Source: Alphaproteobacteria bacterium (GTDB lineage Bacteria > Pseudomonadota > Alphaproteobacteria > Rs-D84). Taken from it: a DNA stretch of 64,000 nucleotides. Both the position numbers and the translations under genes were made by a program. The notes below the pieces were generated by a model that searched no databases, was not told the DNA's origin, and saw only the letters and a list, made by a program, of their open reading frames with translations. The stretch spans positions 3,170 to 67,169 of the forward strand of contig JAKSTC010000001.1 of the NCBI GenBank assembly GCA_024402765.1, read 5' to 3'. Below, piece by piece: positions 774-61,617 of this stretch; within the stretch, counting starts at the first letter, position 1, and every line of letters begins with the position of its first letter.

Positions 774-1559
774 ATGTCGCACACAATAACACTTAATGGA
801 AAAATTATACAAGACATCCGTCACAACATAGGATATCCATCACATGAAAAATCAAAATACGAACGCGAAAGAGTAAGGTTTTCACACTGTCTATTTTTAA
901 CCCAGGATAAAAATATTTTGACTTATCAAACTGCAACCCCTTATACAATTGTGCGTATTTCTGAACCGACAGATATAAAAATTCCATATCCTTTGGCAAT
1001 AAATCTGGAACCTGTTCTTATTGAAAACTCTCCATCTATAAATTTAGAAATTCCTGATTGCACCTTTGCAACACTGCAAACATTTAATAACACCGACCGC
1101 CCAGAATACATAAAAACAAATGACTTGAAAACAAATGTTGTTATGTTGGGAAATTACAAAACAAATCTGGAATATCTGAACGATATGCAAGAGAAAACAA
1201 ATTACATGAATTATTTAATGAATTGCAAAATTGACTATGATACAAAAGACAACGCAAAACAATACGATTGGGACAAAGTACACCTATGCAATTTAGCCGA
1301 CACATTGCACCTGGATTATACAAAACCATATTATATTAAATACCCTCTTTCACAACAAACAGAACTTGATAAATATGCTATGTCCAAAATATTACAACAG
1401 GTTTCTAAATTCGGATATTTGTATCGCACTGTGCACGATGAAGATTACGCAGAAAAAACATTAAAGATTCCCGTTGCTATATTTGCAAAAAACATTTGTT
1501 TGCGACAAATGACAGCATTAATAATTGGTCGCATAAAACAAAACGAACATACAAAATAA
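774..1559 (+). CDS. Hypothetical protein (261 aa), no recognisable domain
   Basis: Long ORF with no signal peptide, followed by a hairpin terminator. No family recognised. Confidence 0.4.
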   Translation: MSHTITLNGKIIQDIRHNIGYPSHEKSKYERERVRFSHCLFLTQDKNILTYQTATPYTIVRISEPTDIKIPYPLAINLEPVLIENSPSINLEIPDCTFATLQTFNNTDRPEYIKTNDLKTNVVMLGNYKTNLEYLNDMQEKTNYMNYLMNCKIDYDTKDNAKQYDWDKVHLCNLADTLHLDYTKPYYIKYPLSQQTELDKYAMSKILQQVSKFGYLYRTVHDEDYAEKTLKIPVAIFAKNICLRQMTALIIGRIKQNEHTK

Positions 1560-2085: not shown

Positions 2086-2125
2086 AATAAAACCGGCATA
2101 AATGCCGGCTTAATTTTTTTTCCAA
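2086..2125. repeat. Hairpin repeat copy 1: caaaaataaaaccggcataaaTgccggc plus T-run
   Basis: Near-identical ~30-nt copy at 2283-2317. Stem ccggcat/atgccgg. Confidence 0.5.
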
Positions 2126-2130
2126 TCACA

Positions 2131-2240
2131 AAGGAACAAAAACAAGATTCCCTCGGCACTATGTGCCTGCGGGGCAACCGTAACGATTTTGCTTCATTTT
2201 ATTCGCAAAATCTACTTGTTGTCGAACCATGTCATTGTTT
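2131..2240. repeat. Dispersed structured element (attccctcggcac...cctgcggggcaaccgtaacgattt...gttgtcgaacc) fused to a 10-nt tRNA-Pro 3' fragment (aacaagattc)
   Basis: About 80% identical over the ccctcgg...gtcgaacc core to the units at 61161-61491. In both places the element begins right after a copy of the adjacent tRNA's T-loop 'gattc'. Confidence 0.55.
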
Positions 2241-2282
2241 CACAATGAACATATGTATCAAATCTGAATGCTACATCCGACC

Positions 2283-2317
2283 AAAAATAAAACCGGCATA
2301 AAAGCCGGTTTGATTTT
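2283..2317 (-). terminator. Rho-independent terminator downstream of tRNA-Pro (hairpin repeat copy 2)
   Basis: aaccggc-tttta-gccggtt followed by a T-run on the minus strand, immediately 3' of the tRNA. Confidence 0.55.
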
Positions 2318-2394
<77 letters not shown>

Positions 2395-4188: not shown

Positions 4189-5199
4189 CTAAGCCAGCAA
4201 ACTATCCAATAAATCGTTCATATTGTCCCTAATATCTTCACGATCCGCCGCCCAAACCAACCTACGCATAACAAACTTATGCACATCATCCATTGTTAAA
4301 TTTGGAATATGCGCACGTTTTACAACGCGTGCCCACGCAACACGCGGATCTGCCAAATGATTTTTACAACGACTCACAAAAATCCAATCACTATTTTCCT
4401 GGGGCAAATCTTGCAATAATACAGCAGTTCTATCAGACAACGGCCAATCTTTCCACATATAATGATTAAAATCTAAATCAGCCCAACACATAGAAAAAAT
4501 TTTTGATTTAGGTAAAAAGCTATACACCAACATTAAAAACGCGGCACGCACGATGAGATTTTCCTCCATATTAATTGCGTCAACCAGCGCACGCAAACCA
4601 TATTCTGTCAAAGGAGATGTCCGATATTTTTTTTCAATGCGTTTTAATTGTATCGCAGGATTTTTTTTGACGTATCCCATTTCAACGGCATATTTAAAAA
4701 TACTATTTAATAATTCCTGCATACGACCAGCGATTGTTTGTCCTTCTATATTTGCAATAACACTTTCTAAATCATCAACTTTAATTTCATCAACAAATTT
4801 ATCAAACAAATCTTTCAAATGCAGCTCTATAGAACGAACCAATTTAACTTCTGAATCTTCACTGCGACGAACACAGTTTTTAATATACAGGCCAACAAAT
4901 TCTTTAAATTTAATTTTCTTACGCCGCACAGGAACTTTTTTCAATGCGTTTTCCAATAACGCTGGCACCGCAGCACGCGCCATTTCAATATCAACCGTTG
5001 GATAGTTTCCTATGATAATTCGTTTATCATTACCATGCACCCTTTTACGAACAAAGAATGTTTTGACCCCACGTGATGTAACATACATACGCAGACGCGG
5101 TTCTGATAAATCTTGGACAACATCAAACCCCTTTGCTGGTGTGGGCAAATTATCTAAAATATACGAATTAAAGAAAAATTGATGTGCCATTTTATTCAC
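4189..5199 (-). CDS. P4-type integrase-like protein (Arm/DUF4102-like N-terminal domain), catalytic region apparently degenerate
   Basis: N-terminus [43 protein letters not shown] resembles the P4-integrase Arm domain. The C-terminal half has a tyrosine-recombinase-like layout, but no obvious HxxR box II and no terminal catalytic Tyr. The start overlaps the lepA stop by 8 nt. Confidence 0.5.
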
Positions 5200-7033
5200 C
5201 TACTTTTAATGCGTTAATAAATGCGCTTTGTGGAATTTCGACATTACCGAATGTGCGCATACGTTTTTTTCCTTCTTTTTGTTTTTCCAACAGTTTGCGT
5301 TTACGTGTGATATCACCACCATAACATTTTGCAGTAACATCCTTACGATACGCAGCAATCGTTTCACGCGCGATAATTTTTCCACCAATCGCCGCCTGGA
5401 GTGGAATTTTAAACTGGTGCCGTGGAATTAAGTCTTTCAATCTTTCAACAATTTGACGACCGCGCGATTCTGCAACAGATCGATGACAAATAAAAGACAA
5501 CGGTTCAACATTTTCTTCATTAACCAGAATCGAAACCTTTACCAAATCAGACACTTCGTATCCACATACCGAATAATCAAATGATGCATAACCCGAAGAT
5601 ATAGATTTCACCCTGTCGTAAAAATCAAACACAACCTCTGCCAACGGCAGGCGATATGTCAACACTGCGCGATTTCCAACATAGGAAATATTTTCCTGGA
5701 CCCCGCGCCGTTGTGAACACAATTCCATCAAGCCGCCCATATATTTATCAGGCATCATAATTGTTGCGCGCACCCATGGTTCTTCGATTGATTCTATTTT
5801 TGTGGGGTCTGGCATATCTGCAGGATTTTCCAAATCCATCATATCGCCCCCGCGCAGATGAATTTTATACAGCACACTCGGCACCGTATTAATCAGGTTC
5901 AAATTAAATTCGCGGGTCAGGCGTTCGCTAATAATCTCCATATGCAACAAACCCAAAAATCCACAACGCAAACCAAACCCCAATGCCGAAGATTTTTCAG
6001 TTACAAACATAAAAGACGCATCATTCAACGCCAACTTTTCTGCACTTTCGCGCAGGTTTGGATAATCGTCCGCAGACACTGGGAAAAACGAAGAAAACAC
6101 GACCGGCACAGACGGCTTAAAACCCGGTAACGCCGCGCCACCGGATTTAGAATCAACGATTGTGTCCCCAACCTTGCAATCGTGAATTGTTTTCATACCC
6201 GTAATAATAAATCCGATTTCGCCTGTTTCCAAACTATCGACATTAACCATTTTCGGTGTAAAATAGCCAATTTTTTCAACCGTATATTCTGCGCCTGTCG
6301 CAACAAATTTTATTTTTTGTCCGCGCGACAATTTACCATCAACGACACGCACCAAAACAACAACACCCAAATAAGAATCATACCATGAATCAACCAGCAA
6401 CGCGCGTGTTGGCGCATTTTCATCACCATTTGGCGCCGGCAATTTATGAACGATTTCTTCCAACAATTCTGGGACACCTGCGCCGGTTTTTCCCGACACA
6501 GTTAATGCATCGTTTGCATCCAGTCCGATAACATCTGCTATTTGTTCGCGGGTGGCGGCGACATCACTGGACGGCAAATCAATTTTATTCAATACCGGCA
6601 ACATTTCCAAATTATTATCCAACGCCAAATAAGCATTCGCCAGCGTCTGCGCCTGGACCCCCTGGGTTGCATCGACCAAAACAATCGCGCCCTCGCACGC
6701 CGCCAAACTGCGCGACACTTCGTATGAAAAGTCTACATGCCCCGGTGTATCCATCAAATTAAGTTGATATTCTTGCCCATCTTTGGCGCGATAGTTTAAA
6801 CGCACCGTTTGTGCCTTTATCGTAATTCCGCGTTCGCGTTCAATATCCATTGAATCAAGCACCTGGGCCTTCATTTCCCGCGCCTGCAGTCCACCCGTAA
6901 ATTCAATCAACCGGTCTGACAGGGTTGATTTACCATGATCGATATGCGCAACAATAGAAAAATTTCGGATATTTTTTTGATTCACCTTTATACCTTTTGC
7001 GGCAATGATACACCCGTATAAGGCATCACGCAA
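5192..7033 (-). CDS. lepA: Elongation factor 4 (LepA)
   Basis: [18 protein letters not shown]1 motif and full EF4 architecture. The true start may be the GTG 16 codons downstream (VNQKNIRNF). Confidence 0.9.
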
Positions 7034-8262: not shown

Positions 8263-8991
8263 TTAGAAATTATACCGCAAACCGAAAGACAACGAATTAG
8301 ACAGCATAAAACCATTTTCAACTTTTGATGTGACAACCGTTCCATCACCAGGGCGCCAAACGCGCTCATGCGACGTTCCTGTAATTCCAGCCAAACGATA
8401 GCGAATATCAAAAGTCATATTATCATTTAACTGTGTGCTATACCCAAACATTACACCGCCCATAAATCCGAAACCAAACTTATTCCTGTTGCTTTCAACA
8501 AAATCAGTCCCCGCAGCATCTATTGTAATAATTGGCATTGCGGCACCGACACCAGCCCCAACATACAGACCGTTAATAAAATTGTAATAACCATTCACAG
8601 TTGCGTATGGGATTTGCACAGCATATTCGCCACCGCTATCTTTATCTGTCATACGGCCGAGATATCCCGCCTCAACATCTGCGCGCCAATTTGAATCAAA
8701 CCATTTACCAACAGATAAATTGCCACCAAACACAGGTTTAAAAGAATAATTTTCTGTTGTTTCATCTCCATATGGATAGCCATCTAAACTCGCAGAAGCA
8801 GTAGCCTTAAAATTCCAAAATGCCAATTCTGCGCGTAATGTCATATACCAATCACTGACTGGTTTATCTGCGTAATCATAAGTAACGACATAACCGCCAT
8901 CATTTGCATTTGATTTAACCATAGTTGGTGCGGCGATTGCCCCAGACGATAAAACCACAGCACCCGCGATAACAGAAACTAATTTTTTCAT
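8263..8991 (-). CDS. Outer-membrane beta-barrel protein (OmpA-like / Omp25 family)
   Basis: Signal peptide, alternating amphipathic strands, C-terminal ...GLRYNF ending in Phe. Confidence 0.6.
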   Translation of the reverse strand: MKKLVSVIAGAVVLSSGAIAAPTMVKSNANDGGYVVTYDYADKPVSDWYMTLRAELAFWNFKATASASLDGYPYGDETTENYSFKPVFGGNLSVGKWFDSNWRADVEAGYLGRMTDKDSGGEYAVQIPYATVNGYYNFINGLYVGAGVGAAMPIITIDAAGTDFVESNRNKFGFGFMGGVMFGYSTQLNDNMTFDIRYRLAGITGTSHERVWRPGDGTVVTSKVENGFMLSNSLSFGLRYNF

Positions 8992-9057
8992 TTTTTCCCC
9001 TTTATTTTGCTGTGAATATTATACCACTTTTCAGATATAAAAACAAATACTAAAGAC

Positions 9058-9092
9058 AAAAAAATCGTGCAGGTCATAGCACGATTTTCAGA
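9058..9092 (-). terminator. Rho-independent terminator
   Basis: aaatcgtgc-n8-gcacgattt followed by a T-run on the minus strand, downstream of the 9107 gene. Confidence 0.5.
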
Positions 9093-9106
9093 AACTTTTT
9101 TTAATA

Positions 9107-9625
9107 TTACTCAAGCCATATATTGGCAAGAGTTGACGAACTGGAACCACCACTGCGAACTTGCGAAATAGCAGTATTAGTTATCGTTGTTCCACTAATC
9201 GATATCCCCGTTCCTGCTGTATAGGTTGTATTGGTATCGGTATCAATATCATTTGCCCAAGCAACGGAACCATCAGATTGTTTTTTCAAAACCTGACCGG
9301 CACTACCGCCACTTGGATCTGTAATCTTTGTCCTAATTGCACTGGCAACCGCCTTACCACTCATACCACTGGAACTGGTTGCATCATAAGCATCAGTAAC
9401 CGTTGGTATTGTCAATGTAACATTTCCATTAAGTGGGGCAACATCATTAACTTTCGTTACTGTACCAGCATTTTTTGTAAAACCCCAACCACTTACAGTC
9501 TGTTCTGTAACAGCCGCGGGTATATTCAAAGAATTAACAACATCATCCACATATTTTGTCGACGCGATATCCGCAAAAGCGAAACCAGGAATAAATACCA
9601 AAGGCAAGATAAATATTTTTTTCAT
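9107..9625 (-). CDS. Secreted protein, phage-tail-fibre-like family (N-terminal IASTKYVDD motif)
   Basis: Start taken at MKKIFILPLVFIPGFAFA (signal peptide). T/S/G-rich. Shares its N-terminal motif with six other ORFs in the window. Confidence 0.55.
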   Translation of the reverse strand: MKKIFILPLVFIPGFAFADIASTKYVDDVVNSLNIPAAVTEQTVSGWGFTKNAGTVTKVNDVAPLNGNVTLTIPTVTDAYDATSSSGMSGKAVASAIRTKITDPSGGSAGQVLKKQSDGSVAWANDIDTDTNTTYTAGTGISISGTTITNTAISQVRSGGSSSSTLANIWLE

Positions 9626-9642
9626 ATTTATAATCCACTTAT

Positions 9643-9990
9643 TTAATTTGCAGTTGTACGCGTAATAAGTTCCCACTTTAATGTTATTTGATTATTATCA
9701 TCCTTGGTCGCGGTCAAAACATATGTTCCATCAGTGCCATCTGCCACCGCAGACAAATCCAAATTAGCCGTAGTTATCCCAGTTGTTGAATCTTTAACAA
9801 TCTTTATATTACTACTATTGGATAACTTATCCTGTTTTTTATTATCCAACGAATCGTATGCCAATTCGACATAGGTCCCCGTTGCCAATGTTGGCAAAGA
9901 CGCAGTTGGTGCCGGATCCGCCGCACGCGCAGAACCCACGAACATAGCCGCCGCCAAACATAAAACAGAAAAACCAGTTATATGTTTCAT
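9643..9990 (-). CDS. Small secreted protein of the same family (ATGTYVELAYDSLDNKKQDKL)
   Basis: Start at MKHITGFSVLCLAAAMFVGSARA (signal peptide), followed by the shared xYV...K.DK motif. Confidence 0.5.
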   Translation of the reverse strand: MKHITGFSVLCLAAAMFVGSARAADPAPTASLPTLATGTYVELAYDSLDNKKQDKLSNSSNIKIVKDSTTGITTANLDLSAVADGTDGTYVLTATKDDNNQITLKWELITRTTAN

Positions 9991-10066
9991 AAAACCCTTC
10001 CCATCGTGTCCACTATAATATGATAATAAATTTATCAATCACAGTGCAAGTGAAAATTTTATTTTT

Positions 10067-10100
10067 CCGACATCCGTGGGTGGGAACCCCCACCCACGGA
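10067..10100. terminator. Perfect 12-bp palindrome (tccgtgggtggg-aaccc-ccacccacgga), likely terminator of the 10113 gene
   Basis: Hairpin immediately 3' of the minus-strand gene. Confidence 0.5.
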
Positions 10101-10112
10101 TATCTGTTTTAG

Positions 10113-11243
10113 TTAAATACTAGATGGTACGTCCAAAGTACCGGAATTAAATGCGTTAATTATGCTAATTTTAACAGCTTTACCATCATAACCAACATAA
10201 CACAAATCACCCTCAGCTTCACCACATTCTAAATCTTCAGCATTTGCCTTTGCATCCAATGCAGCTGTCAAGCCAGCAATCTTGCTCTGTTCGATTGCTG
10301 CAGAACCTGATATATCTGCATTTACGATTGCACCACTTGTAATATCACCGGCTTCAACCTTATTTTTTGCTGCCAAATCACCTAAATCCGCTGAATCTGC
10401 TTTCTTTGCCAATTCTGTATTCATGTCAGTTGTGGTTGTGTAATTTGTCAAATCAGCAACATTTTTGTTGATATAACCAGCATCATTAGTAAAGGTGCTA
10501 ACATTAGTTGGTTTACCACTCAAATCACTATACGCACCACTTGTTGCGACAGCTGCTAAACCACTAACATAATCAGCAGACAATTTGTGTGTACTATCAA
10601 TCGTAGCCTGTTTACCTTCCAATGCTGTATCAACTTCAAGCGCTGAATATGTTTCTGCCTTTAAATATGTATCTGTCTTATCTGCTTTGCCAGATTCCAA
10701 CGCATCAATGTCAGCTTCTGCAGCAGTCAAACGAGTATTCAAACCACTTTCTACGCCTGTTGCACGTGTTACTTCAGCATCAATAGCTTCGGTATTATCT
10801 TCAACAGTTGCTGCCAAAGTTGTCAAAGAACCTGTTGCGCCACTAATCTCGTCAATAGCACTCTCGATTGCACTAGCAACCTCTTCTTGAGTATAAGTTT
10901 CTTCTTTTGTATAAACATCAGCACTATCCGCCTTTTCAGCAATAGTTTCAGCATAACCATCATAAGTGCTAACCTTATCCGATGTGATGCCGGAATTTAC
11001 TGCCGCCAGTTGGGCTGTGTTCAAAGCAGCCTGTTTTGCATCCCATGCGTCTTGTTTTGCCTTTGTAACGTGCAAATCTGTGTTGCTTGCGTGAGTTGTG
11101 ATAGCCTGAGCATTTGTGTTATACGCAGTATCGACGTATGTTTTTGTGGTCAAAGAACCCGCATCTGCAGTTGCAGCGTATGCGCCACCAGCCATTAATA
11201 TAGAAGCCATAAAGCCACTAAATACAATATTTCTTATTTTCAT
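10113..11243 (-). CDS. Secreted phage-tail-fibre-repeat protein
   Basis: Start at MKIRNIVFSGFMASILMAGGAYA (signal peptide, aaggaaaa SD). Repeats of the form DVYTKEETYTQEEV / KTDTYLKAETYSALEVD and ...SGAYSDLSGKPT resemble phage tail-fibre repeats. The K-rich N-terminal extension of the listed ORF is an A-rich intergenic artefact. Confidence 0.6.
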   Translation of the reverse strand: MKIRNIVFSGFMASILMAGGAYAATADAGSLTTKTYVDTAYNTNAQAITTHASNTDLHVTKAKQDAWDAKQAALNTAQLAAVNSGITSDKVSTYDGYAETIAEKADSADVYTKEETYTQEEVASAIESAIDEISGATGSLTTLAATVEDNTEAIDAEVTRATGVESGLNTRLTAAEADIDALESGKADKTDTYLKAETYSALEVDTALEGKQATIDSTHKLSADYVSGLAAVATSGAYSDLSGKPTNVSTFTNDAGYINKNVADLTNYTTTTDMNTELAKKADSADLGDLAAKNKVEAGDITSGAIVNADISGSAAIEQSKIAGLTAALDAKANAEDLECGEAEGDLCYVGYDGKAVKISIINAFNSGTLDVPSSI

Positions 11244-11358
11244 TTTTTTTCCTTTCTTTCGTTTGTTTGTTTTTTTGTTTATTTTTTTGTTTTTTCTTCG
11301 GTTTTTATTTACTTTCTTTTCTTCACTCTTTTTTTCAGTTTTTTTCAATTAAATCTTT

Positions 11359-12882
11359 TTACCAATTTTTATTGGTTATCGCCAAATCATACGGTACCGC
11401 TGTATTACCAACAATCAGACAATACTTATTATCGTCGCATGTCAAAGCATCCAATTCTGTCTTGGTCGCATAGGTGTCTGTAATAACATTACCAGATGCA
11501 TCCTGTGTTGCCTTGGTTGCGTTTGTTGCATTCGTGGCGTTTGTTGCATTTGTGGCGTTTGTTGCATTTGTGGCACTATCTGCACTTGTTGCTTTTGCAA
11601 CTTTTGTAGTTCCATCAACAATGTCTTCAATTGCTGCTGCATTGGTCGCAATTTGTGTTTTTTCTGATGCTGTAACAAACTTGTTCGTAGCAGATGTATC
11701 ATCAACCAAATCAGCACCCAACTTGCTATCAGTTGTAATTGCGTTCTGTTTGTTTGTCCATGCAGTTTTCTGAGACGATGTCACATGGATATCATTATTT
11801 GCAACGTGTGCATCATATCCATCAATCTTTGTCTTGGTCGCACCAGAATTCGCCGCCGCCAGTTGGGCTTCGGACAAATTAGCCTGTTTTGTGTTGCTTA
11901 AGCCTTGAATATCTTCTGTATGCTGATTTAAAGTCGTATTATACGCATCATATTTGCCAACTTTTTCTTCTGTGATACCAGAATTAGCTGCTGCCAATTG
12001 TTCGGTTGTCAAATTAGCCTGTTTACCATCCTCTAACGCCGCAATAGCGCTTGCGTTTGATGCAATTGCAGCCGTATTCGATGCAATAGCACTAACGTCG
12101 TCTTCTGTGATACCAGAATTCACCGCAGCCAGTTGATCTGTGTTCAAAGCAGCCTGTTTGTTATCCAACAATCCATCAACTTCTGTTTTTGTATAAACAT
12201 CGGTTGCATTAGCTTTGTTATTATTTAAGTTTGTGATATTTGTTTCGGCTGCGGTCATTCTTGCCTTCAAACCAGTATTCGCAGCATTAATGTCAGTATT
12301 TAAGCCTTCAATATCTTCCTCTAATGCGTCAGCAACAGCCTGTAAACCAGATATAGCCCCTCTAATATCCGCGTGAGCCTCTGGTGCCATATCATGATCA
12401 GAGATTTCAAGTGTAATAGCAGCTGTAACATCATCAGCACTTTGGAAATCAGCAACCGTAGTTTCCAATGTGTCCAACCTATCATCCAAATCCCCTATCG
12501 CAGCCTCAGCAGCAGAAGACTCGCCCTCTATATATGCCACAACATTCGCCTTACCCGATGGCAAAGTACCAACCAAGCCAGCCGCCGTACCTTTTGTTTC
12601 GTATGTATCCGCAGCATCCGCAGATTTCAAATATGTAGTGTTAATTGCATTACCATCGGCATCACCTGTTGCCTTGGCTGCAATCGTTGTTCCATTTGTG
12701 ATATTTGTAACCGCGGTACCAACCTTTGATGCCGCATCCGCAGCTGCCTGGCTAATCGCATAGTTAACACCCTGAATCACATACTGATCTGTTGCCAATG
12801 TTGGAGTGTCCGCAGCATATGCCGCACCAGCCATCAAAATGGATGCCATAAATCCACTAAATGCAATGTTTTTTACTTTCAT
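11359..12882 (-). CDS. Secreted phage-tail-fibre-repeat protein (paralog), with an (ATN)n tract
   Basis: Signal MKVKNIAFSGFMASILMAGAAYA. Repeated LAAVNSGITEDDV / LAAANSGITEEKV modules shared with the 10113 gene. C-terminal Cys pair. Confidence 0.6.
   Translation of the reverse strand: MKVKNIAFSGFMASILMAGAAYAADTPTLATDQYVIQGVNYAISQAAADAASKVGTAVTNITNGTTIAAKATGDADGNAINTTYLKSADAADTYETKGTAAGLVGTLPSGKANVVAYIEGESSAAEAAIGDLDDRLDTLETTVADFQSADDVTAAITLEISDHDMAPEAHADIRGAISGLQAVADALEEDIEGLNTDINAANTGLKARMTAAETNITNLNNNKANATDVYTKTEVDGLLDNKQAALNTDQLAAVNSGITEDDVSAIASNTAAIASNASAIAALEDGKQANLTTEQLAAANSGITEEKVGKYDAYNTTLNQHTEDIQGLSNTKQANLSEAQLAAANSGATKTKIDGYDAHVANNDIHVTSSQKTAWTNKQNAITTDSKLGADLVDDTSATNKFVTASEKTQIATNAAAIEDIVDGTTKVAKATSADSATNATNATNATNATNATNATKATQDASGNVITDTYATKTELDALTCDDNKYCLIVGNTAVPYDLAITNKNW
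11506..11590. repeat. Tandem 9/18-nt coding repeat (gcgtttgttgcattYgtg)n encoding ATNATNATN...
   Basis: Four to five near-perfect 18-nt copies. The unit is a multiple of 3, so length changes stay in frame. Confidence 0.7.
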
Positions 12883-12927
12883 TTTTTCCTTCCTTTCGTT
12901 TGTGCAGCTATCTGCTGTTTATTGTTA

Positions 12928-13863
12928 TTATTCTACATCCAGTTTATCTGGGTCAAATGCCCCATCATATACTGAAAAATCTGCAACATCTGTAATTTTG
13001 GTGTTCAGCTCATCAATTTTGCCACTAATCTCATCAATGGTATCATTAATAACCGTAACCCCAGATGATTTATTAAAGGCATCAGTAAACTTTGAATCAA
13101 ACTCTGACGATTTTAAATAACCACCCAAATCTGTTGTTTTCGCATAACCACTAAGTTCAATTTCACCTAATTCGACCGCCCCAGCAATTATATCCGCAAT
13201 ATTATCCGAAGTTACAAAATCACTCATGTCTGGAATATCAGACGACAACGCATAACCCGCCAATGGTGTTGTTGCCAAAGATTTATCTAATTCTTCACGC
13301 AATTTATCTTTTCTAAGATATATCTCATCTATTTCATCTTCTGTAATATAATCATCTATGAGCTGTTGTTTAGTAGCCCAATCGTCAATATCCGCCAATA
13401 AAGATTCTAAAGATTCTAATGCTTCCGCTGTCGTCTCGTCTGATAATTTAAGGTCAGCGATATCTTGCTTTAACAATTCAAACTTTTCTTCAACCTTTGC
13501 TTCAAATTCAGGAAGATTTATCGCCCCAGCCGTTGATGTCGATGTCGAAACCTTGTTGGAAACAACACCAGAACCAGATAAATACTTACCAATTGACATA
13601 CGTGTCCCAGTCCCAGCATTCCCAGATACAGTTCCCGTTGATCCAGATGTCGATGGGGATGTTGTCGCAGATGTTGTTGTCTTGGATACCTTTACCGCAG
13701 GAACGGCACGAACAGATCCCGCACGCGTCGCAGTACCCGACCCAACCGATGTTACACCATTATATGTCCCCGCACCACCCAATGTGCGAACAGACGATGC
13801 AGCAAAACCCAATGTTGGTAATGCCAATATTCCAGACATAATAATAGGTAAAAACTTATTCAA
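12928..13863 (-). CDS. Secreted Ser/Thr-rich acidic protein
   Basis: Signal peptide MNKFLPIIMSGILALPTLGFAASS, then a long S/T/G-rich low-complexity region and an acidic C-terminal half. Confidence 0.5.
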   Translation of the reverse strand: MNKFLPIIMSGILALPTLGFAASSVRTLGGAGTYNGVTSVGSGTATRAGSVRAVPAVKVSKTTTSATTSPSTSGSTGTVSGNAGTGTRMSIGKYLSGSGVVSNKVSTSTSTAGAINLPEFEAKVEEKFELLKQDIADLKLSDETTAEALESLESLLADIDDWATKQQLIDDYITEDEIDEIYLRKDKLREELDKSLATTPLAGYALSSDIPDMSDFVTSDNIADIIAGAVELGEIELSGYAKTTDLGGYLKSSEFDSKFTDAFNKSSGVTVINDTIDEISGKIDELNTKITDVADFSVYDGAFDPDKLDVE

Positions 13864-48224: not shown

Positions 48225-48300
48225 TGGTGGCTAGGAGAGGAATCGAACCACTGACACAGGGATTTTCAGTCCCTTGCTCTACCAACTGAGCTACCTAGCC
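48225..48300 (-). tRNA. tRNA-Phe (anticodon GAA)
   Basis: Manual fold: GGCTAGG acceptor, anticodon loop CTGAAAA, T-loop TTCGATT, encoded CCA. Confidence 0.8.
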
Positions 48301-59118: not shown

Positions 59119-60084
59119 TTATTCAACCTCTGGGCCGGCAATAAATGAACCAGTGCCTGAATTCGTAAAGAATGTTTTCGTCACAGTATCATACATACCA
59201 ATTACACCATCACTATTGCGTTTCGCAGGGATAAGCGACATTGAATTATCTATTTTCAAATAAGCAATTCTTGTGCCATTTATAGATTGATAATCTGAAC
59301 TCTGCACAGCAAACACCCCAAAACTTGAGAAACTTGTTTCAGGCCCTCTTTTTATATCTTTTGTGGATACTCCATCACTTAAAGAAGTTCCATTTAGTGT
59401 TATTGTTCGCCAACCTGGTATAACACCATTAAAATACACAATACTACTACCAGTCCATAAACCATCATAAGAGCTCTGTGCATGAGCAAACAAAGAAAGC
59501 CTAGCACCACCTTGTTCTTGTCCATAATATGCTCCAAAAATAGCTTTAGAATTATCTATTTCACCAGGTATATAGTATTTAACTTCAAAATCACTTTCAG
59601 ATGATAGGACGTTAGCTAATCTAACAACAATTCTTGCTTTTCCATCCGTTTCAATATATTCTAACTGGGTATATTCTGCGGGCAGGATACTGGTCGCATA
59701 TCGCTCAAACACATATTCGTTCGTTGTGGCGTTCCATATCATCATATGTTTACCACTTGTCGGTAATGTCCCCAGGTTTAATTTCGTTATATCTATCATC
59801 CCTGCCAAATCTGCATTCGTTACCGCACCATCCGCCAAATGTATCGTTTCTATTGAATTATCCGCAAATAAATCTGTCCCAACCGTCGTTGCAACCACAT
59901 TCCCAGAATTATCCGTCTGTAATACCATATTTTGTGCATAATTGGCATTGTTTGCCTTTTTATCTATTTTTGCCTGAATATTATCACGCATTTCATTTAC
60001 ATATTCACTGGATGCAATATTCGCAACACAGGGTGATATAATTATAAATAAAAACGATATTACACTAAACAGATATCTAAACAT
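59119..60084 (-). CDS. Secreted phage-tail-fibre-like protein (N-terminal IASSEYVNE...KIDKK motif)
   Basis: Signal peptide. Shares its N-terminal motif and a ...ITKLNLGTLPTSGKHMMIWNATTNEYVFE block with the 60114 gene (...INKLNLPTKCASGSCMLIYNADTGNFVWE). Confidence 0.55.
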   Translation of the reverse strand: MFRYLFSVISFLFIIISPCVANIASSEYVNEMRDNIQAKIDKKANNANYAQNMVLQTDNSGNVVATTVGTDLFADNSIETIHLADGAVTNADLAGMIDITKLNLGTLPTSGKHMMIWNATTNEYVFERYATSILPAEYTQLEYIETDGKARIVVRLANVLSSESDFEVKYYIPGEIDNSKAIFGAYYGQEQGGARLSLFAHAQSSYDGLWTGSSIVYFNGVIPGWRTITLNGTSLSDGVSTKDIKRGPETSFSSFGVFAVQSSDYQSINGTRIAYLKIDNSMSLIPAKRNSDGVIGMYDTVTKTFFTNSGTGSFIAGPEVE

Positions 60085-60113: not shown

Positions 60114-60548
60114 CTAATTACCACTAACGCCACCTGTTGGCGCAGAATCGCCATTACGACCAATATTTTCCCATACAAAATTGCCAGTATCCGCATTGTA
60201 TATCAGCATGCATGACCCGGATGCACATTTTGTTGGTAAATTCAATTTATTTATTCCAACGCCATTCGCTATTTTAGTGTTTGTGACATTTGCATCTTTT
60301 ATCTTATCAGAACTGACCGCGTTATTCGCAATCATCCCCGATGCAATTTGACCCGTCTGCACCGCACCATTTGTGCCGGTCGTCACCAGTGCCTTGTTTG
60401 TCCCAGATGTAAATTTATTATCCAATTTTCCAGAAATATTATCATTCAACCCCTGTTCAACCTGACCCACGTATGCTGTGGACGCAATACCCGCAAATGA
60501 TGGCGTTGCAATTAATGCCAACATAACAATAGTTATAATGCCCTTCAT
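60114..60548 (-). CDS. Secreted phage-tail-fibre-like protein (short paralog)
   Basis: Signal MKGIITIVMLALIATPSFAGIASTAYVGQVEQ. Same family. Confidence 0.55.
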   Translation of the reverse strand: MKGIITIVMLALIATPSFAGIASTAYVGQVEQGLNDNISGKLDNKFTSGTNKALVTTGTNGAVQTGQIASGMIANNAVSSDKIKDANVTNTKIANGVGINKLNLPTKCASGSCMLIYNADTGNFVWENIGRNGDSAPTGGVSGN

Positions 60549-60807
60549 ATTCCCCTTCCTTTTTTTATATAAAAAACCACCGATTTATGTCGAGTGGTTG
60601 GAGGTTAGTAACTATCATATCTAGAAAATAGTGCCGCTTATTCAATTTATTCGCGCGCCCTCCAACCCATTTGTTGGAGTTTTTTATACTAGATATACCG
60701 GGTTACTACACCCCATCATGACAATTCATCACGACAGAATTACTATAAAACATTTTGTAAATATATGTCCAGAATATTTTAATCGCGACAAGACGCGCAG
60801 GGATTCC

Positions 60808-61047
60808 CTAAAAATGCTTTTTTATAAATTCACGCCCACACTGTGATTTTAAATATATCTCAAACTTTTTTGCTTTTTGTTCATCATCAAAAGCAAAATA
60901 ATTTTTTATACGCCAAGGACGATATTTATCTGTATGCCCAACATGTTCATAATTATGCTGTTTTAACCGTCTTTTCAAATCATCGGTATAGCCGATATAA
61001 AACTTATCTGGAAAATTTACACTTTGTAAAATATAAACATAAAACAT
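60808..61047 (-). CDS. GIY-YIG nuclease family protein (79 aa)
   Basis: FYVYILQS...FYIGYTDDLKRRLKQHN is a canonical GIY-YIG motif. Confidence 0.75.
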   Translation of the reverse strand: MFYVYILQSVNFPDKFYIGYTDDLKRRLKQHNYEHVGHTDKYRPWRIKNYFAFDDEQKAKKFEIYLKSQCGREFIKKHF

Positions 61048-61160
61048 TTTTCGCCCGTCTGCGCTGCACTTCGTTTGCTCCGTCGCGGCATCCGTTTCGC
61101 GTGATTAAAATCACATCGCCCCGTCCCGATTAATCGCGACGGAGCGAAGCGAAGACGGAT

Positions 61161-61491
61161 GGTGGACGCGCAGGGATTCCCTCGGGCACTAATAGCCCTG
61201 CGGGGCAACCGTAACGATTTGATTGCACTACGTTTATCAAATCTACTCGTTGTCGAACCTTAGGGTTCTCATCCGCTTCGTCCGGCACAAATAAAAAATG
61301 CCACTCTCGTGACATTTTTTATTTGTGGTGGACGCGCAGGGATTCCCTCGGGCACTAATAGCCCTGCGGGGCAACCGTAACGATTTGATTGCACTACGTT
61401 TATCAAATCTACTCGTTGTCGAACCTTAGGGTTCTCATCCGCTTCGTCCGGCACAAATAAAAAATGCCACTCTCGTGACATTTTTTATTTG
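61161..61491. repeat. Two tandem ~165-bp units, each beginning with a 21-nt copy of the tRNA-Lys 3' end (tggtggacgcgcagggattc) followed by a structured element and a hairpin/T-run
   Basis: Units 61161-61326 and 61327-61491 are near-identical. A third partial copy (gacgcgcagggattccct) lies at 60792-60809. The listed ORFs 61130..61315 and 61269..61481 are repeat artefacts with identical translations. Confidence 0.8.
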
Positions 61492-61567
61492 TGGTGGACG
61501 CGCAGGGATTCGAACCCTGGACCCACTGATTAAGAGTCAGTTGCTCTACCAACTGAGCTACGCATCC
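61492..61567 (-). tRNA. tRNA-Lys (anticodon CTT)
   Basis: Manual fold: GGATGCG acceptor, anticodon loop CTCTTAA, T-arm CAGGG-TTCGAAT-CCCTG, encoded CCA. Confidence 0.8.
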
Positions 61568-61617
61568 AGAACTGTGTGCAGTATTATAAAATAATTTCCT
61601 ATAAAATCAAGTTTTTA

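Follow-up and report, generated by a model that had tools for sequence, protein, structure and literature searches.

Why should a short structured sequence downstream of a tRNA gene carry a fragment of that same tRNA, and how did it come to lie there? The question is raised by a 64,000-nt stretch of an alphaproteobacterial genome (contig JAKSTC010000001.1; the whole stretch is called the window below), where an initial annotation had flagged an element behind tRNA-Pro(CGG), equated it with one repeated behind tRNA-Lys(CTT), and argued for a mobile or recombinogenic element that inserts into the T loop of tRNA genes. We find that this flagged sequence belongs, as one copy, to a family of small, non-coding fold-back elements of ~125-170 nt that are linked to tRNA genes. 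Window coordinates refer to the minus strand throughout, which is the tRNA strand.

Anatomy of the units in the window

The window contains the core three times, always on the minus strand: once behind tRNA-Pro(CGG) and twice behind tRNA-Lys(CTT). That they represent the same element, as the initial annotation had it, is borne out by a 22-mer (CCTGCGGGGCAACCGTAACGAT) that occurs exactly three times (2166-2187, 61197-61218 and 61363-61384; any match in 0 of 100 shuffles) and by a covariance model of the core, which matches the same three copies and nothing else in the window (2128-2232, 61157-61263 and 61323-61429, at 97-106 bits, with 105.6 bits for the first of these, the Pro copy).

Each unit stands immediately 3' of a tRNA gene and the terminator hairpin of that tRNA. 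It opens with A*, an inverted copy of the last ~24 nt of the neighbouring tRNA, followed by a short turn, a stretch ..GGTTCGA that is a direct copy of the start of the T arm, the ~85-nt, three-helix core E, and a tail (ATCC...CCA) that supplies the remainder of the tRNA from T loop to CCA; usually the terminator is then repeated. The core therefore lies exactly in the T loop of a duplicated tRNA 3' third, downstream of the gene. The junction is constant across the family (TTCGA / core / ATCC plus tRNA 3' end), and at both Pro and Lys it falls in the T loop after TTCGA, so that two tRNAs do indeed share one element and one junction point. The proposed insertion into the tRNA gene itself does not hold, however: the tRNA is intact, and it is the second, downstream copy of its 3' third that houses the core. 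Two features had been overlooked altogether, namely the inverted copy of the tRNA end and the covarying three-helix core. A* has two possible pairing partners, the real tRNA end and the unit's own tail. When it pairs with the latter, the unit closes as a four-way junction with a stem resembling a tRNA minihelix and a 3' CCA, and complete units are indeed predicted to fold into closed four-way junctions with an ACCA end.

At the Pro locus, the last 24 nt of the tRNA (GTTCGAATCTTGTTACTCCGACCA) are the template for both the inverted and the direct copies 3' of the gene. In the predicted fold, A* pairs with the 3' end of the tRNA, in register with tRNA positions 53-76, to give a long hairpin that is capped by the terminator t1; the duplex energy is -29.1 kcal/mol with the cognate tRNA versus -15.8 kcal/mol with non-cognate tRNAs, none of which equals the cognate pairing. 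The core reads GG TTCGA / CAACAAGTAG, hairpin 1, AAATCGTTACGGTTGCC, CCGCAG, hairpin 2 and GAGGGA. Its tail has decayed, with 8 mismatches in 18 nt and only 8 nt kept; an orthologous Pro unit (locus L020) has a more complete one. The initial annotation had rested its case on a 10-mer, aacaagattc, and the repeat is real (2141-2150, again at 2328-2337 within tRNA-Pro). By itself, however, it is weak evidence, at roughly 1e-3, since GAATC is common to the end of the element (GAGGGAATC) and to the universal T loop, which leaves about five of the ten bases informative.

The two Lys units both finish with the last 18 nt of tRNA-Lys (18/18 matches), beginning just after T-loop A58. The second lacks a terminator behind it and is followed by a cassette whose gene has a confirmed GIY-YIG domain. 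We found no promoter belonging to the units near tRNA-Lys; the only good promoter-like site there is upstream of the tRNA gene.

Table 1. Features of the tRNA-Pro and tRNA-Lys loci in the window
Feature	Position	Strand	Basis	Remarks
tRNA-Pro(CGG)	2318..2394	-	ARAGORN; Rfam tRNA, 65 bits	Intact
Terminator hairpin t1	2290..2311	-	Terminator scan, fold	Directly 3' of tRNA-Pro
A* of Pro unit	2255..2283	-	Fold, duplex energies	Inverted tRNA-Pro 3' end (TGGTCGGATGTAGCATTCAGATTTGATAC)
Small turn hairpin	2232..2248	-	Sequence, folds	TCATTGTGAAACAATGA; separates inverted and direct copies
Core E, Pro copy	2149..2229	-	Covariance model, covariation	Structured; the element first flagged
Decayed Pro tail	2141..2148	-		Remaining part ATCTTGTT = tRNA-Pro positions 59-66; rest diverged
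Second terminator hairpin	2090..2111	-	Terminator scan	End of Pro unit; diverged duplicate of t1
tRNA-Lys(CTT)	61492..61567	-	ARAGORN, Rfam	Intact; promoter-like site 61583-61610
Lys unit 1 (166 bp)	61326..61491	-	Sequence, covariance model, folds	Terminator hairpin 61454-61491; A* 61430-61453 (TGCCGGACGAAGCGGATGAGAACC); turn 61426-61429; core 61344-61425; tail 61326-61343 (ATCCCTGCGCGTCCACCA), tRNA-identical
Lys unit 2 (166 bp)	61160..61325	-	Sequence, covariance model	Identical tandem copy; terminator 61288-61325; A* 61264-61287; core 61178-61259; tail 61160-61177
Partial core-end/tail junction	60792..60809	-	Sequence	Extra copy (AGGGAATCCCTGCGCGTC) on far side of GIY-YIG gene

Cognate matching across the family

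Do these features extend beyond the window? A pattern scan of public genomes returned 55 stretches, of which 7 were set aside as chance matches and 48 kept. The kept relatives (about 47-48) are all Candidatus Enterousia-like Alphaproteobacteria of gut or rumen, and nearly all copies with enough flank have a tRNA gene upstream on the same strand, at a distance of about 60-121 nt. The core family serves tRNAs with 13 anticodons, so that the suggested tie to tRNA genes is upheld across many tRNA species, while tRNA-Phe, tRNA-Glu and tRNA-Met are without units. A search of viral contigs for the element yielded 0 copies.

To compare the tail with the tRNA, we took a 12-nt probe from the neighbouring tRNA (positions 62-73, excluding T loop and CCA) and looked for it in the 200 nt that follow the core on its 3' side, using 35 units drawn from the public genomes as well as the window. 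It was found with at most one mismatch in 28 of the 35, and the mean number of tail mismatches was 0.94 for the cognate tRNA as opposed to 4.69 for non-cognate tRNAs (Wilcoxon p = 1e-10). The inverted copy behaves in the same manner: A* folds in register with the tRNA 3' end at nearly every locus, and the family-wide duplex energy is -22.3 kcal/mol for cognate versus -16.6 kcal/mol for non-cognate pairing (p = 2e-8). This duplex-energy test replaces an earlier test of the closing helix in which the 5' window was too short (p = 0.01). The closing helix co-varies with tRNA type, and inverted and direct copies are cognate even among divergent subfamilies.

Could the likeness at the Pro locus nonetheless be a coincidence, a chance 10-nt match to tRNA-Pro beside ordinary dispersed repeats? 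Taken by itself the Pro copy, with its handful of informative bases, might be read in this way, but the family-wide statistics on tRNA linkage, A* and tail refute the idea, to which we assign a negligible probability.

Core structure and kinship with RtT

The element had been described as structured, and core E is a three-helix structure supported by covariation. In the core alignment, 96.9% of cells are paired versus 85.6% upon shuffling (0 of 500 shuffles reach the observed value), 12 of 21 pairs have changed on both sides, and sliding the partner strand lowers the paired fraction to 24-49%. The long arm contains 11 G.T wobbles versus one A.C, an excess that points to the tRNA-sense strand as the favoured one, and some unpaired nucleotides of the core are invariant. 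Compensatory changes together with conservation of unpaired positions would also be compatible with an RNA under selection in the host, or with a recombination site in single-stranded DNA.

When the window was scanned against Rfam 15, only three tRNAs reached their gathering score, and E-value scans gave nothing credible besides a weak match to RtT. Several other identities were considered and rejected. The R boxes of integron attC sites (RYYYAAC / GTTRRRY) are absent, CGACAAC and GTTGCCC misfitting the consensus when aligned. A tmRNA or permuted tmRNA piece is incompatible with an acceptor that lacks G3.U70, with blank ARAGORN and Rfam results and with the clade's permuted tmRNA lying elsewhere. 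GAUGAG...CGAC misfits the hammerhead catalytic core and has no Rfam match, and the likeness to group II intron domain V is limited to ACGGUU, with the wrong hairpin geometry. A split tRNA or one with a T-loop intron would need the tRNA's 5' half, whereas the 5' segment here is much too short and is reverse-complementary to the tRNA end. Finally, an IS200/IS605-type miniature or an omega-RNA-like scaffold plus guide is at odds with dissimilar hairpins, a 'guide' sequestered by A*, and the lack of any TnpA or TnpB in the window.

To our knowledge, RtT has been known since 1991 from one E. coli tRNA operon, and its origin and function have never been explained. This known RNA by-product of tRNA operons corresponds to the 178-bp tyrT-operon repeats (Rfam RF00391), for which PMC3318445 and PMC4986893 cite Bösl & Kersten (1991), and RtT-family RNAs adjoining tRNA-Asn and tRNA-Lys genes are reported in PMC4986893 as detected by Northern blot in Actinobacillus. 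Both Lys units of the window score 16.0 bits with the Rfam RtT model, short of the gathering threshold of 45; the model (positions 1-130) aligns with the Lys unit end to end, via GGAUGAGAAC, AAGGUUCGA, CGAG..AAUCC and then the tail. No RtT match at E <= 1 was obtained for the Pro copy or for eight further loci. In E. coli K-12 we read the repeat as GCGGGGAAGGATGAGAAGC..AAGGTTCGAC, core and GAGTAATCCTTCCCCCACCACCA, three times over, with the annotated rtT RNA starting 7 nt past tyrV and ending with the first repeat's CCA.

The likeness resides in the frame. Units of both kinds come straight after a same-strand tRNA gene and are tandemly repeated; both open with an inverted, G-rich version of the tRNA end that contains GGATGAGAA(G/C)C, have AAGGTTCGAC before the core and GAG..AATCC after it, and end, three times in E. 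coli, in the last 19 nt of the tRNA including CCA, from the T loop onwards (AATCC...). The Rfam consensus structure likewise has a closing helix in which a 5' segment (..GGAUGAGAAC..) pairs with the tail, with AAGGUUCGA before the core, and RtT, too, has members beside further tRNAs, Asn and Lys, in Pasteurellaceae. In contrast, the central cores are unrelated: E. coli RtT and core E have no significant similarity (z = 0.3-3.3; 1.2 for the Lys unit, 3.3 for the Pro unit), with GTTGCC..GCAGGCA as the sole common stretch. Here, moreover, the host is an alphaproteobacterium, a terminator hairpin that A* extends in register lies between tRNA and unit, and at least 13 tRNA species per clade are served rather than one operon. 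Kinship with RtT thus amounts to frame and junction motifs, and could be partly convergent, since both derive from the universal T loop. The architecture is in any case one already known from E. coli RtT, and not a new kind of system.

We favour, with about an even chance of being right, a reading of the units as RtT-like, non-autonomous elements that are probably read through and processed in the manner of tRNAs. Since a unit has no promoter of its own, its transcription would require RNA polymerase to run on past the tRNA terminator; with a strong terminator hairpin ahead of every unit, such transcription may be rare. The closing stem and CCA would then probably allow the tRNA maturation machinery to trim the unit to a discrete, stable by-product RNA, as has been reported for E. 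coli RtT. Unequal crossing-over would be made possible by the direct repeats (the tRNA tail, alone or with the terminator), and hence tandem amplification and clean loss, and the T-loop/tail junction may also take in further modules and gene cassettes. The family as a whole would be non-autonomous and selfish or near-neutral rather than an essential gene. Unequal crossing-over accounts for amplification and loss; it does not account for matched units at 13 different tRNAs.

Gain, loss and the origin of the frame

How stable are the units at a given locus? We surveyed one syntenic tRNA-Lys(CTT) locus in 47 relatives and found core E in 14, a different module (module C) at the same junction in 5, truncated E in 2, divergent E in one, remnants in 3, and an empty site in 22, including the window's nearest relatives. 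The genomes in which filled and empty states were compared have flanking proteins that are 46-71% identical, at which distance insertion and loss are indistinguishable. For tRNA-Glu, the flanks of locus L039 were not alignable with those of L021 and L028. Elsewhere, tandem arrays of units occur, and module B or module C may be nested between core E and the tail. Patchiness, remnants, empty sites, tandem arrays and module swaps mean that the family behaves like a gain-and-loss element, and to this extent the initial annotation's mobile or recombinogenic element finds backing; no transposase or integrase is associated with it. Among bacterial repeats that are small, palindromic and non-autonomous, REP/BIME sequences, REPINs and Rickettsia palindromic elements are likewise short, structured, multi-copy, non-coding and intergenic near terminators, and a further common trait is occurrence in a reduced genome of the Alphaproteobacteria. 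Their termini are fixed and they do not depend on tRNA genes, whereas the units described here take their outer inverted repeat from the adjacent tRNA, so that it varies from copy to copy.

Imagine instead that the matched tail and A* were functional requirements rather than by-products of origin, so that the units formed a host-selected family of structured small RNAs with a function tied to the cognate tRNA, for example as an acceptor/T-arm minihelix decoy or mimic that engages a toxin or tRNA-binding enzyme, or with A* as a caged antisense against the tRNA 3' end. This idea agrees with the core's strong covariation and its invariant unpaired nucleotides, and with a closing stem that co-varies with tRNA type. 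Units are also kept at the same tRNA across several species (five Tyr loci, at least seven Arg-ACG loci), and in small genomes. Further, the perfect T-loop complement (GATTCGAAC) is present in 0 of 34 spacers; in its stead there is often GAYGAGAAC, here and in E. coli RtT, which would yield tandem G.A pairs facing the T-loop GA. However, if the host depended on these RNAs, one would hardly expect a syntenic locus at which units are patchy, some copies are truncated or have lost the tail and about half of the relatives are empty, nor three tRNAs without units, a decayed tail in the window's Pro copy, unrelated cores in the same frame, or an upstream terminator and no own promoter. We consider a host function rather improbable.

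What, then, of site-specific integration? A tyrosine or serine recombinase, encoded elsewhere or lost, might integrate circular DNA at the T loop/3' end, the units being footprints or miniature cis-mobilizable elements, with the core as conserved attachment-site arm, the tRNA tail as attR repeat and solo units as minimal elements or deletion leftovers. A direct repeat of a tRNA 3' end from the T loop is the classic integrase signature, exemplified by mycobacteriophage Ms6, whose attB in the T loop of tRNA-Ala is described in PMC1762012. PMC3146451 describes tandem and integrase-less 'cis-mobilizable' islands at the Dehalococcoides tmRNA gene, bounded by 3'-end repeats. The units resemble both in the direct tRNA or tmRNA 3'-end repeat from in or near the T loop that bounds the insert, and in their tandem arrays, members without integrase and repeat-bounded accessory cassettes. 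Gln-type units in particular bound such cassettes: a methyltransferase lies between tRNA-Gln and the unit in L018, the L012 contig has a unit at both its start and its end, and in L038 and L001 a small serine recombinase, a GIY-YIG gene and phage-like genes adjoin units. The window's own GIY-YIG cassette has junction copies on both sides.

Several observations argue against integration as a satisfactory explanation. A gene for an integrase or recombinase within or beside the element would be expected of the T-loop attB class. When we clustered all ORFs within 3 kb of the 48 loci, no recurrent protein family emerged, only synteny and spurious ORFs overlying the element, and no transposase or integrase was found to travel with these units; the small serine recombinase is near two Gln-type units only, and an exact-protein lookup of a flanking peptidase gave no record. 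The window has a single integrase-like ORF (4189-5199), which lies 5' of tRNA-Pro and has no catalytic-domain match, and the GIY-YIG gene and integrase recur only in L001 and L020. No recombinase recurs beside units and viral contigs gave no match. Some 40 units are cargo-free with uniform boundaries, unlike random deletion scars. Unlike the T-loop attB elements, moreover, the units are gene-free at 125-170 nt, contain an inverted tRNA-end copy, for which a standard att site has no role, and have an RNA-like core whose one-strand wobble and compensatory changes are unexpected for double-stranded protein-binding arms. One core family serves many tRNAs and would require 13 tRNA-specific attachment sites. 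We thus regard integration as unlikely, and retain the RtT-like element as the better account.

A further scenario takes the frame itself as its starting point. The units might be non-autonomous mobile elements that move as single-stranded DNA (or RNA), with A* as a long guide or as one half of a folded attachment site in which the A*/tail hairpin rebuilds the tRNA 3'-end duplex; in a variant, the inverted and direct copies would be made anew from the target, through snap-back template switching at the terminator and at TTCGAA, both natural palindromes. The models here are the folded attC sites of integrons and the attP hairpin of CTX phage, in which stem pairing is conserved though sequence is not and a large variable structured insert is tolerated. 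The units share this conservation of pairing over sequence, the variable structured insert and cassette-like arrays, but we found no IntI-type integrase and no sign of a single-stranded intermediate. The layout (tRNA end, terminator, A*, turn, direct copy), with both junctions at palindromes, fits the scenario, as do the always cognate A* and direct copies, divergent subfamilies included, the strand-specific structure, and at least three unrelated cores at the identical TTCGA/ATCC position. However, it is inferred from anatomy, and no HUH, Xer-type or other candidate enzyme was identified. An intermediate with inverted copy that never had a core was not found; the two 'inverted copy only' candidates resemble truncations. 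A 166-nt circle is also without a known route of replication or transfer. We consider movement of this kind quite improbable.

Cores unrelated to core E, namely modules C and B and that of E. coli RtT, occupy the same junction in the same frame. We tentatively entertain, as an idea that is probably wrong, that these three and core E are all passengers of one undescribed general process that sets a small structured module at TTCGA/ATCC while the tRNA 3' end is copied both inverted and direct. Candidates for such a process could be snap-back switching at the terminator and TTCGAA palindrome, or A* as target guide or half of a folded attachment site. If it were true, the origin of RtT repeats would be explained, and the passengers would constitute a new class of tRNA-directed, non-autonomous mobile elements common to Gamma- and Alphaproteobacteria; if a dedicated mechanism makes the frames, it would be a new way to target the most conserved sequence of tRNA genes with the gene spared. 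Irrespective of mechanism, the RtT frame recurs in distant gut Alphaproteobacteria at no fewer than 13 tRNAs and with unrelated cores, which turns a single-locus curiosity into a class with clear, searchable and testable rules, and annotators should not by default take tRNA 3' fragments for pseudogenes or island boundaries. As to core E itself, its variants cluster weakly, with identities of 0.685 when grouped by tRNA type and 0.72 when grouped by genome, versus 0.646.

Anatomy of the units in the window

The covariance model of core E, the ~85-nt structured core that each unit carries, matches the window exactly three times (97-106 bits), always on the minus strand, which is opposite to the strand on which the initial annotation had read the flagged stretch; the 22-mer taken from the core in that annotation likewise occurs three times, and never in shuffled sequence. 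On the tRNA strand, the lysine locus consists of tRNA-Lys, a terminator hairpin and two identical 166-bp units, each of which ends in ATCCCTGCGCGTCCACCA, identical to the final 18 nt of tRNA-Lys from just after T-loop A58. The proline copy retains only ATCTTGTT of its tRNA, so that its 10-nt match is weak on its own.

The 5' part of the unit, missed in the initial annotation, is the reverse complement of the last ~24 nt of the same tRNA. At almost every locus, the tRNA 3' end and the spacer co-fold into a single extended in-register hairpin capped by the terminator, and across 33 units the duplex between a tRNA 3' end and its own spacer (-22.3 kcal/mol) is more stable than that formed by other tRNAs (-16.6 kcal/mol; p = 2e-8). 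A recurrent GAYGAGAAC corresponds to the T-loop complement with GA in place of the central TC; the perfect complement, GATTCGAAC, is present in 0 of 34 spacers. From the reverse-complementary 5' part, the in-register hairpin and the cognate duplex, the full layout follows: the tRNA 3' third (A), a terminator, its inverted copy (A*), a short turn (in some units a small GCAAC/GTTGC hairpin), a direct copy (A') split by the core, and a terminator again. A' comprises the T-stem 5' strand plus TTCGA, then, beyond the core, ATCC...CCA. In the folds A* pairs with either A or A', and with A' as the partner the unit is predicted to close into a four-way junction that carries ACCA at its 3' end.

Features of the window
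Feature	Position	Strand	Remark
tRNA-Pro(CGG)	2318-2394	-	
tRNA-Lys(CTT)	61492-61567	-	
tRNA-Phe	48225-48300		without a unit
Core copy, Pro locus	2128-2232	-	covariance model
Core copy, Lys locus	61157-61263	-	covariance model
Core copy, Lys locus	61323-61429	-	covariance model
Lys unit tail	61160-61177		near-side bracket of the GIY-YIG gene
GIY-YIG nuclease gene, 79 aa	60808-61047	-	Pfam E = 3e-13; directly after second Lys unit
Partial core-end/tail junction copy, AGGGAATCCCTGCGCGTC	60792-60809		far side of the GIY-YIG gene
P4-type integrase-like ORF, 336 aa	4189-5199	-	Arm DNA-binding and central domain matches
Secreted protein	9107-9676	-	signal peptide, then IAS(T/S)xYV
Secreted protein	59119-60084	-	signal peptide, then IAS(T/S)xYV
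Secreted protein	60114-60548	-	signal peptide, then IAS(T/S)xYV
Surface-protein gene run	8263-13863		

Linkage to tRNA genes and structure of the core

Scanning one genome per bacterial species with a two-anchor core pattern yielded 55 stretches, seven of which, from unrelated phyla, were set aside as chance matches. The other 48 all belong to Candidatus Enterousia or to unnamed Alphaproteobacteria of gut, rumen or faeces. The initial annotation had expected copies to lie beside tRNA genes, and nearly all stretches whose flank is long enough do have a same-strand tRNA gene 61-121 nt upstream of the core; these genes represent 13 tRNA species (Arg-ACG, Arg-CCG, Arg-TCT, Gln, Lys-CTT, Lys-TTT, Pro-CGG, Pro-TGG, Ser-CGA, Ser-GGA, Ser-TGA, Tyr and Val); the bystander tRNAs Glu, Met, Phe and Ser-GCT in the examined loci are without the element. 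The tail that follows the core is the 3' end of the neighbouring tRNA itself. Probing with 12 nt of tRNA, conserved T loop and CCA left out, we find the cognate sequence at no more than one mismatch in 28 of 35 units, with on average 0.94 mismatches to the cognate and 4.69 to non-cognate tRNAs (p = 1e-10, 35 units). Identity starts at T-loop G57/A58 irrespective of loop sequence (GACTCC in Arg-CCG, GAGTCT in Val), and more divergent copies, recovered with the covariance model at 32-56 bits, retain the whole frame. The observation of element copies joined to tRNA ends is thus borne out and extended; of the proposed insertion into the T loop of tRNA genes, the junction and the tRNA linkage stand and the gene itself as target does not.

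The core is a real structure, as the initial annotation had supposed. A structure drawn by hand on an alignment of 46 sequences has CAAC/GTTG, GTA/TAC, a hairpin of 8 bp, a helix of 3 bp and a further hairpin. Paired cells make up 96.9%, compared with 85.6% after shuffling (none of 500 shuffles as high), and 12 of the 21 pairs have changed on both sides. Shifting the 3' partners by one to three columns reduces pairing to 24-49%. The long arm contains 11 G.T wobbles and a single A.C, and the favoured folded strand is therefore the tRNA-sense one. Invariance of the two scan anchors reflects ascertainment and is not evidence of conservation.

Comparison with RtT

No Rfam family matched at threshold; the only recurrent weak match, at 16 bits and end-to-end on both Lys units, was to RtT (RF00391), an RNA from the repeat unit of the E. 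coli tyrT operon (PMC3318445). Release during tRNA processing and possible stringent-response effects are described for it, and in Actinobacillus expressed family members adjoin tRNA-Asn and tRNA-Lys genes (PMC4986893). The 178-bp tyrT repeat of E. coli K-12 reads GCGGGGAAGGATGAGAAGC, TTCGACCAAGGTTCGAC, core, GAGTAATCCTTCCCCCACCACCA. Like the alphaproteobacterial units, it has an inverted tRNA end, here of tRNA-Tyr, with the GGATGAGAA motif, GGTTCGAC ahead of the core and an AATCC junction; after the core come the last 19 nt of the tRNA, from T loop to CCA, and the annotated rtT RNA ends at exactly that CCA. A matching inverted copy, GGTTCGAC and T-loop-to-CCA tail thus give both the same frame, around cores that differ (alignment z = 0.3-3.3). 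In the literature searched, the tyrT repeats are not read as an inverted plus a direct copy of a tRNA 3' third, with the core placed in the T loop. In the K-12 tyrT region (1285800-1287700), the rtT repeats at local positions 900-1440 (-) show the inverted-copy motif GGATGAGAAGC.

The element falls below the curated threshold for RtT and has a core of its own; it is nevertheless best filed under the RtT kind, already known and poorly understood, as an RtT-like, tRNA-linked fold-back element. The units have no promoter of their own, the sole good promoter-like site near tRNA-Lys lying upstream of the tRNA. Transcription would then occur by terminator read-through, A* might fold onto the tail to give a minihelix-like stem with CCA, and tRNA maturation enzymes might trim the unit, as reported for RtT.

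Separately, a two-piece (permuted) tmRNA gene is present in the clade (locus L055, 3517-3858; alpha_tmRNA, 169 bits; tag ADKKMNANDNVPLAMAA). Kinship of the units with it was rejected, the GATTCGAC motif notwithstanding.

Gain, loss and links to mobile DNA

Starting from the gene for the M23 peptidase, which lies upstream of tRNA-Lys, we collected 80 related metagenomic loci (L-numbers denote loci from other genomes), 47 of which, window counted, had the syntenic tRNA-Lys(CTT) and enough downstream sequence. The distribution is patchy: core E follows the tRNA in 14 loci by covariance model, is truncated in two (L065, L098) and takes the form of a divergent E-like core in one (L067); five carry module C (complete copies in L056 and L078, truncated ones in L057, L060 and L076), three only a remnant, that is an inverted copy or A*-like start (L080, L103, L134), and 22 are empty, including two of the window's closest relatives (L075 and L081, 71% and 67% protein identity), in genomes too far apart to separate insertion from loss. 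Module C is an unrelated structured core set in the identical arrangement of A, terminator, A* and A', at the same TTCGA(A)|ATCC junction. In L042 it lies between core E and tail, as module B does in the Tyr loci, in L049, in L050 and in L004. Units are in tandem in the window, L031, L037, L026, L044 and L051. Gain, loss, decay and nesting fit a dispensable, selfish or near-neutral element rather than an essential RNA, and unequal crossing-over between direct repeats could yield both tandem amplification and clean loss.

Module C reads CCGCCGCAAAAAGGCAGACGG...GCCAGGTCGGCGCAGCCA (L078 4680-4750, also L056); it stands alone behind tRNA-Lys, after core E in L042, and as a remnant behind tRNA-Glu (L039 6230-6260). 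Module B, a second conserved ~85-nt structured insert between core E end and tRNA tail, runs AATACGAGAATAYACAATTA, terminator-like hairpin AAAATCTT..AAGATTTT, AATTATTGTGTATCRAGG (L015 4066-4145; also L011, L017, L032, L047, L049, L050 and L004, ~6370-6470). The T loop of the window's tRNA-Lys is TTCGAAT, as in L103; most relatives, including the nearest empty ones, have TTCGAGT (compared with L075, L081 and L061). Judged from sequence, the difference may be the relic of an exchange at the junction.

A core might reach a new tRNA, along with matching inverted and direct copies of that tRNA's end, by either of two speculative routes: snap-back template switching at two natural palindromes, the terminator and TTCGAA, or a folded single-stranded attachment site whose duplex target is rebuilt by A* and tail. 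Both routes are compatible with the unit's anatomy. The element is a putative, unproven mobile one. Within 3 kb of the units no protein family is recurrent, viral contigs hold no copies, and the window has the look of ordinary chromosome. Gln-type units do border accessory cassettes: a methyltransferase gene separates tRNA-Gln from the unit in L018, L012 is a 1.5-kb contig (1517 bp) with a unit at both start and end, and a small serine recombinase, a GIY-YIG gene and phage-like genes lie beside units in L038 and L001. Since units border cassettes and the window's GIY-YIG gene sits between junction copies, the tails mark a recombination-prone zone. They resemble T-loop attB sites (PMC1762012) as well as the islands at the Dehalococcoides tmRNA gene, which are tandem and in part integrase-less (PMC3146451); the analogy supports, without establishing, a rival explanation at the DNA level.

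Identical Gln-type units are assembly break points (L012, L001 start and L009 end, all MAG JAZLJO01; L002/L038, JAKSTF01 contig 21). Two units on a single contig enclose accessory genes, among them those for a TetR regulator, a flavodoxin, a nitroreductase, a kinase-like ORF, a small serine recombinase and a DUF5131-like phage protein. Each Gln-type cassette ends in a 'pseudo-tail' that has only GTTCG.. and ..CCAACCA in common with tRNA-Gln. By its sequence context, the window's GIY-YIG gene resembles a cassette inserted separately; GTCGCGATTAA recurs close to both its ends. A 53%-identical gene lies in an island adjoining a Gln-type unit (L001 3740-3985), and in L077 and L080 a different GIY-YIG-like ORF begins immediately behind tRNA-Lys. 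The integrase-like ORF, which lacks a catalytic-domain match, may be an inactivated or repurposed integrase; a 60%-identical orthologue (L020 4620-5615) lies near a tRNA-Pro unit, on the other side of the tRNA. The two IAS(T/S)xYV genes at 59-60.5 kb, just beyond the GIY-YIG cassette, may be cargo.
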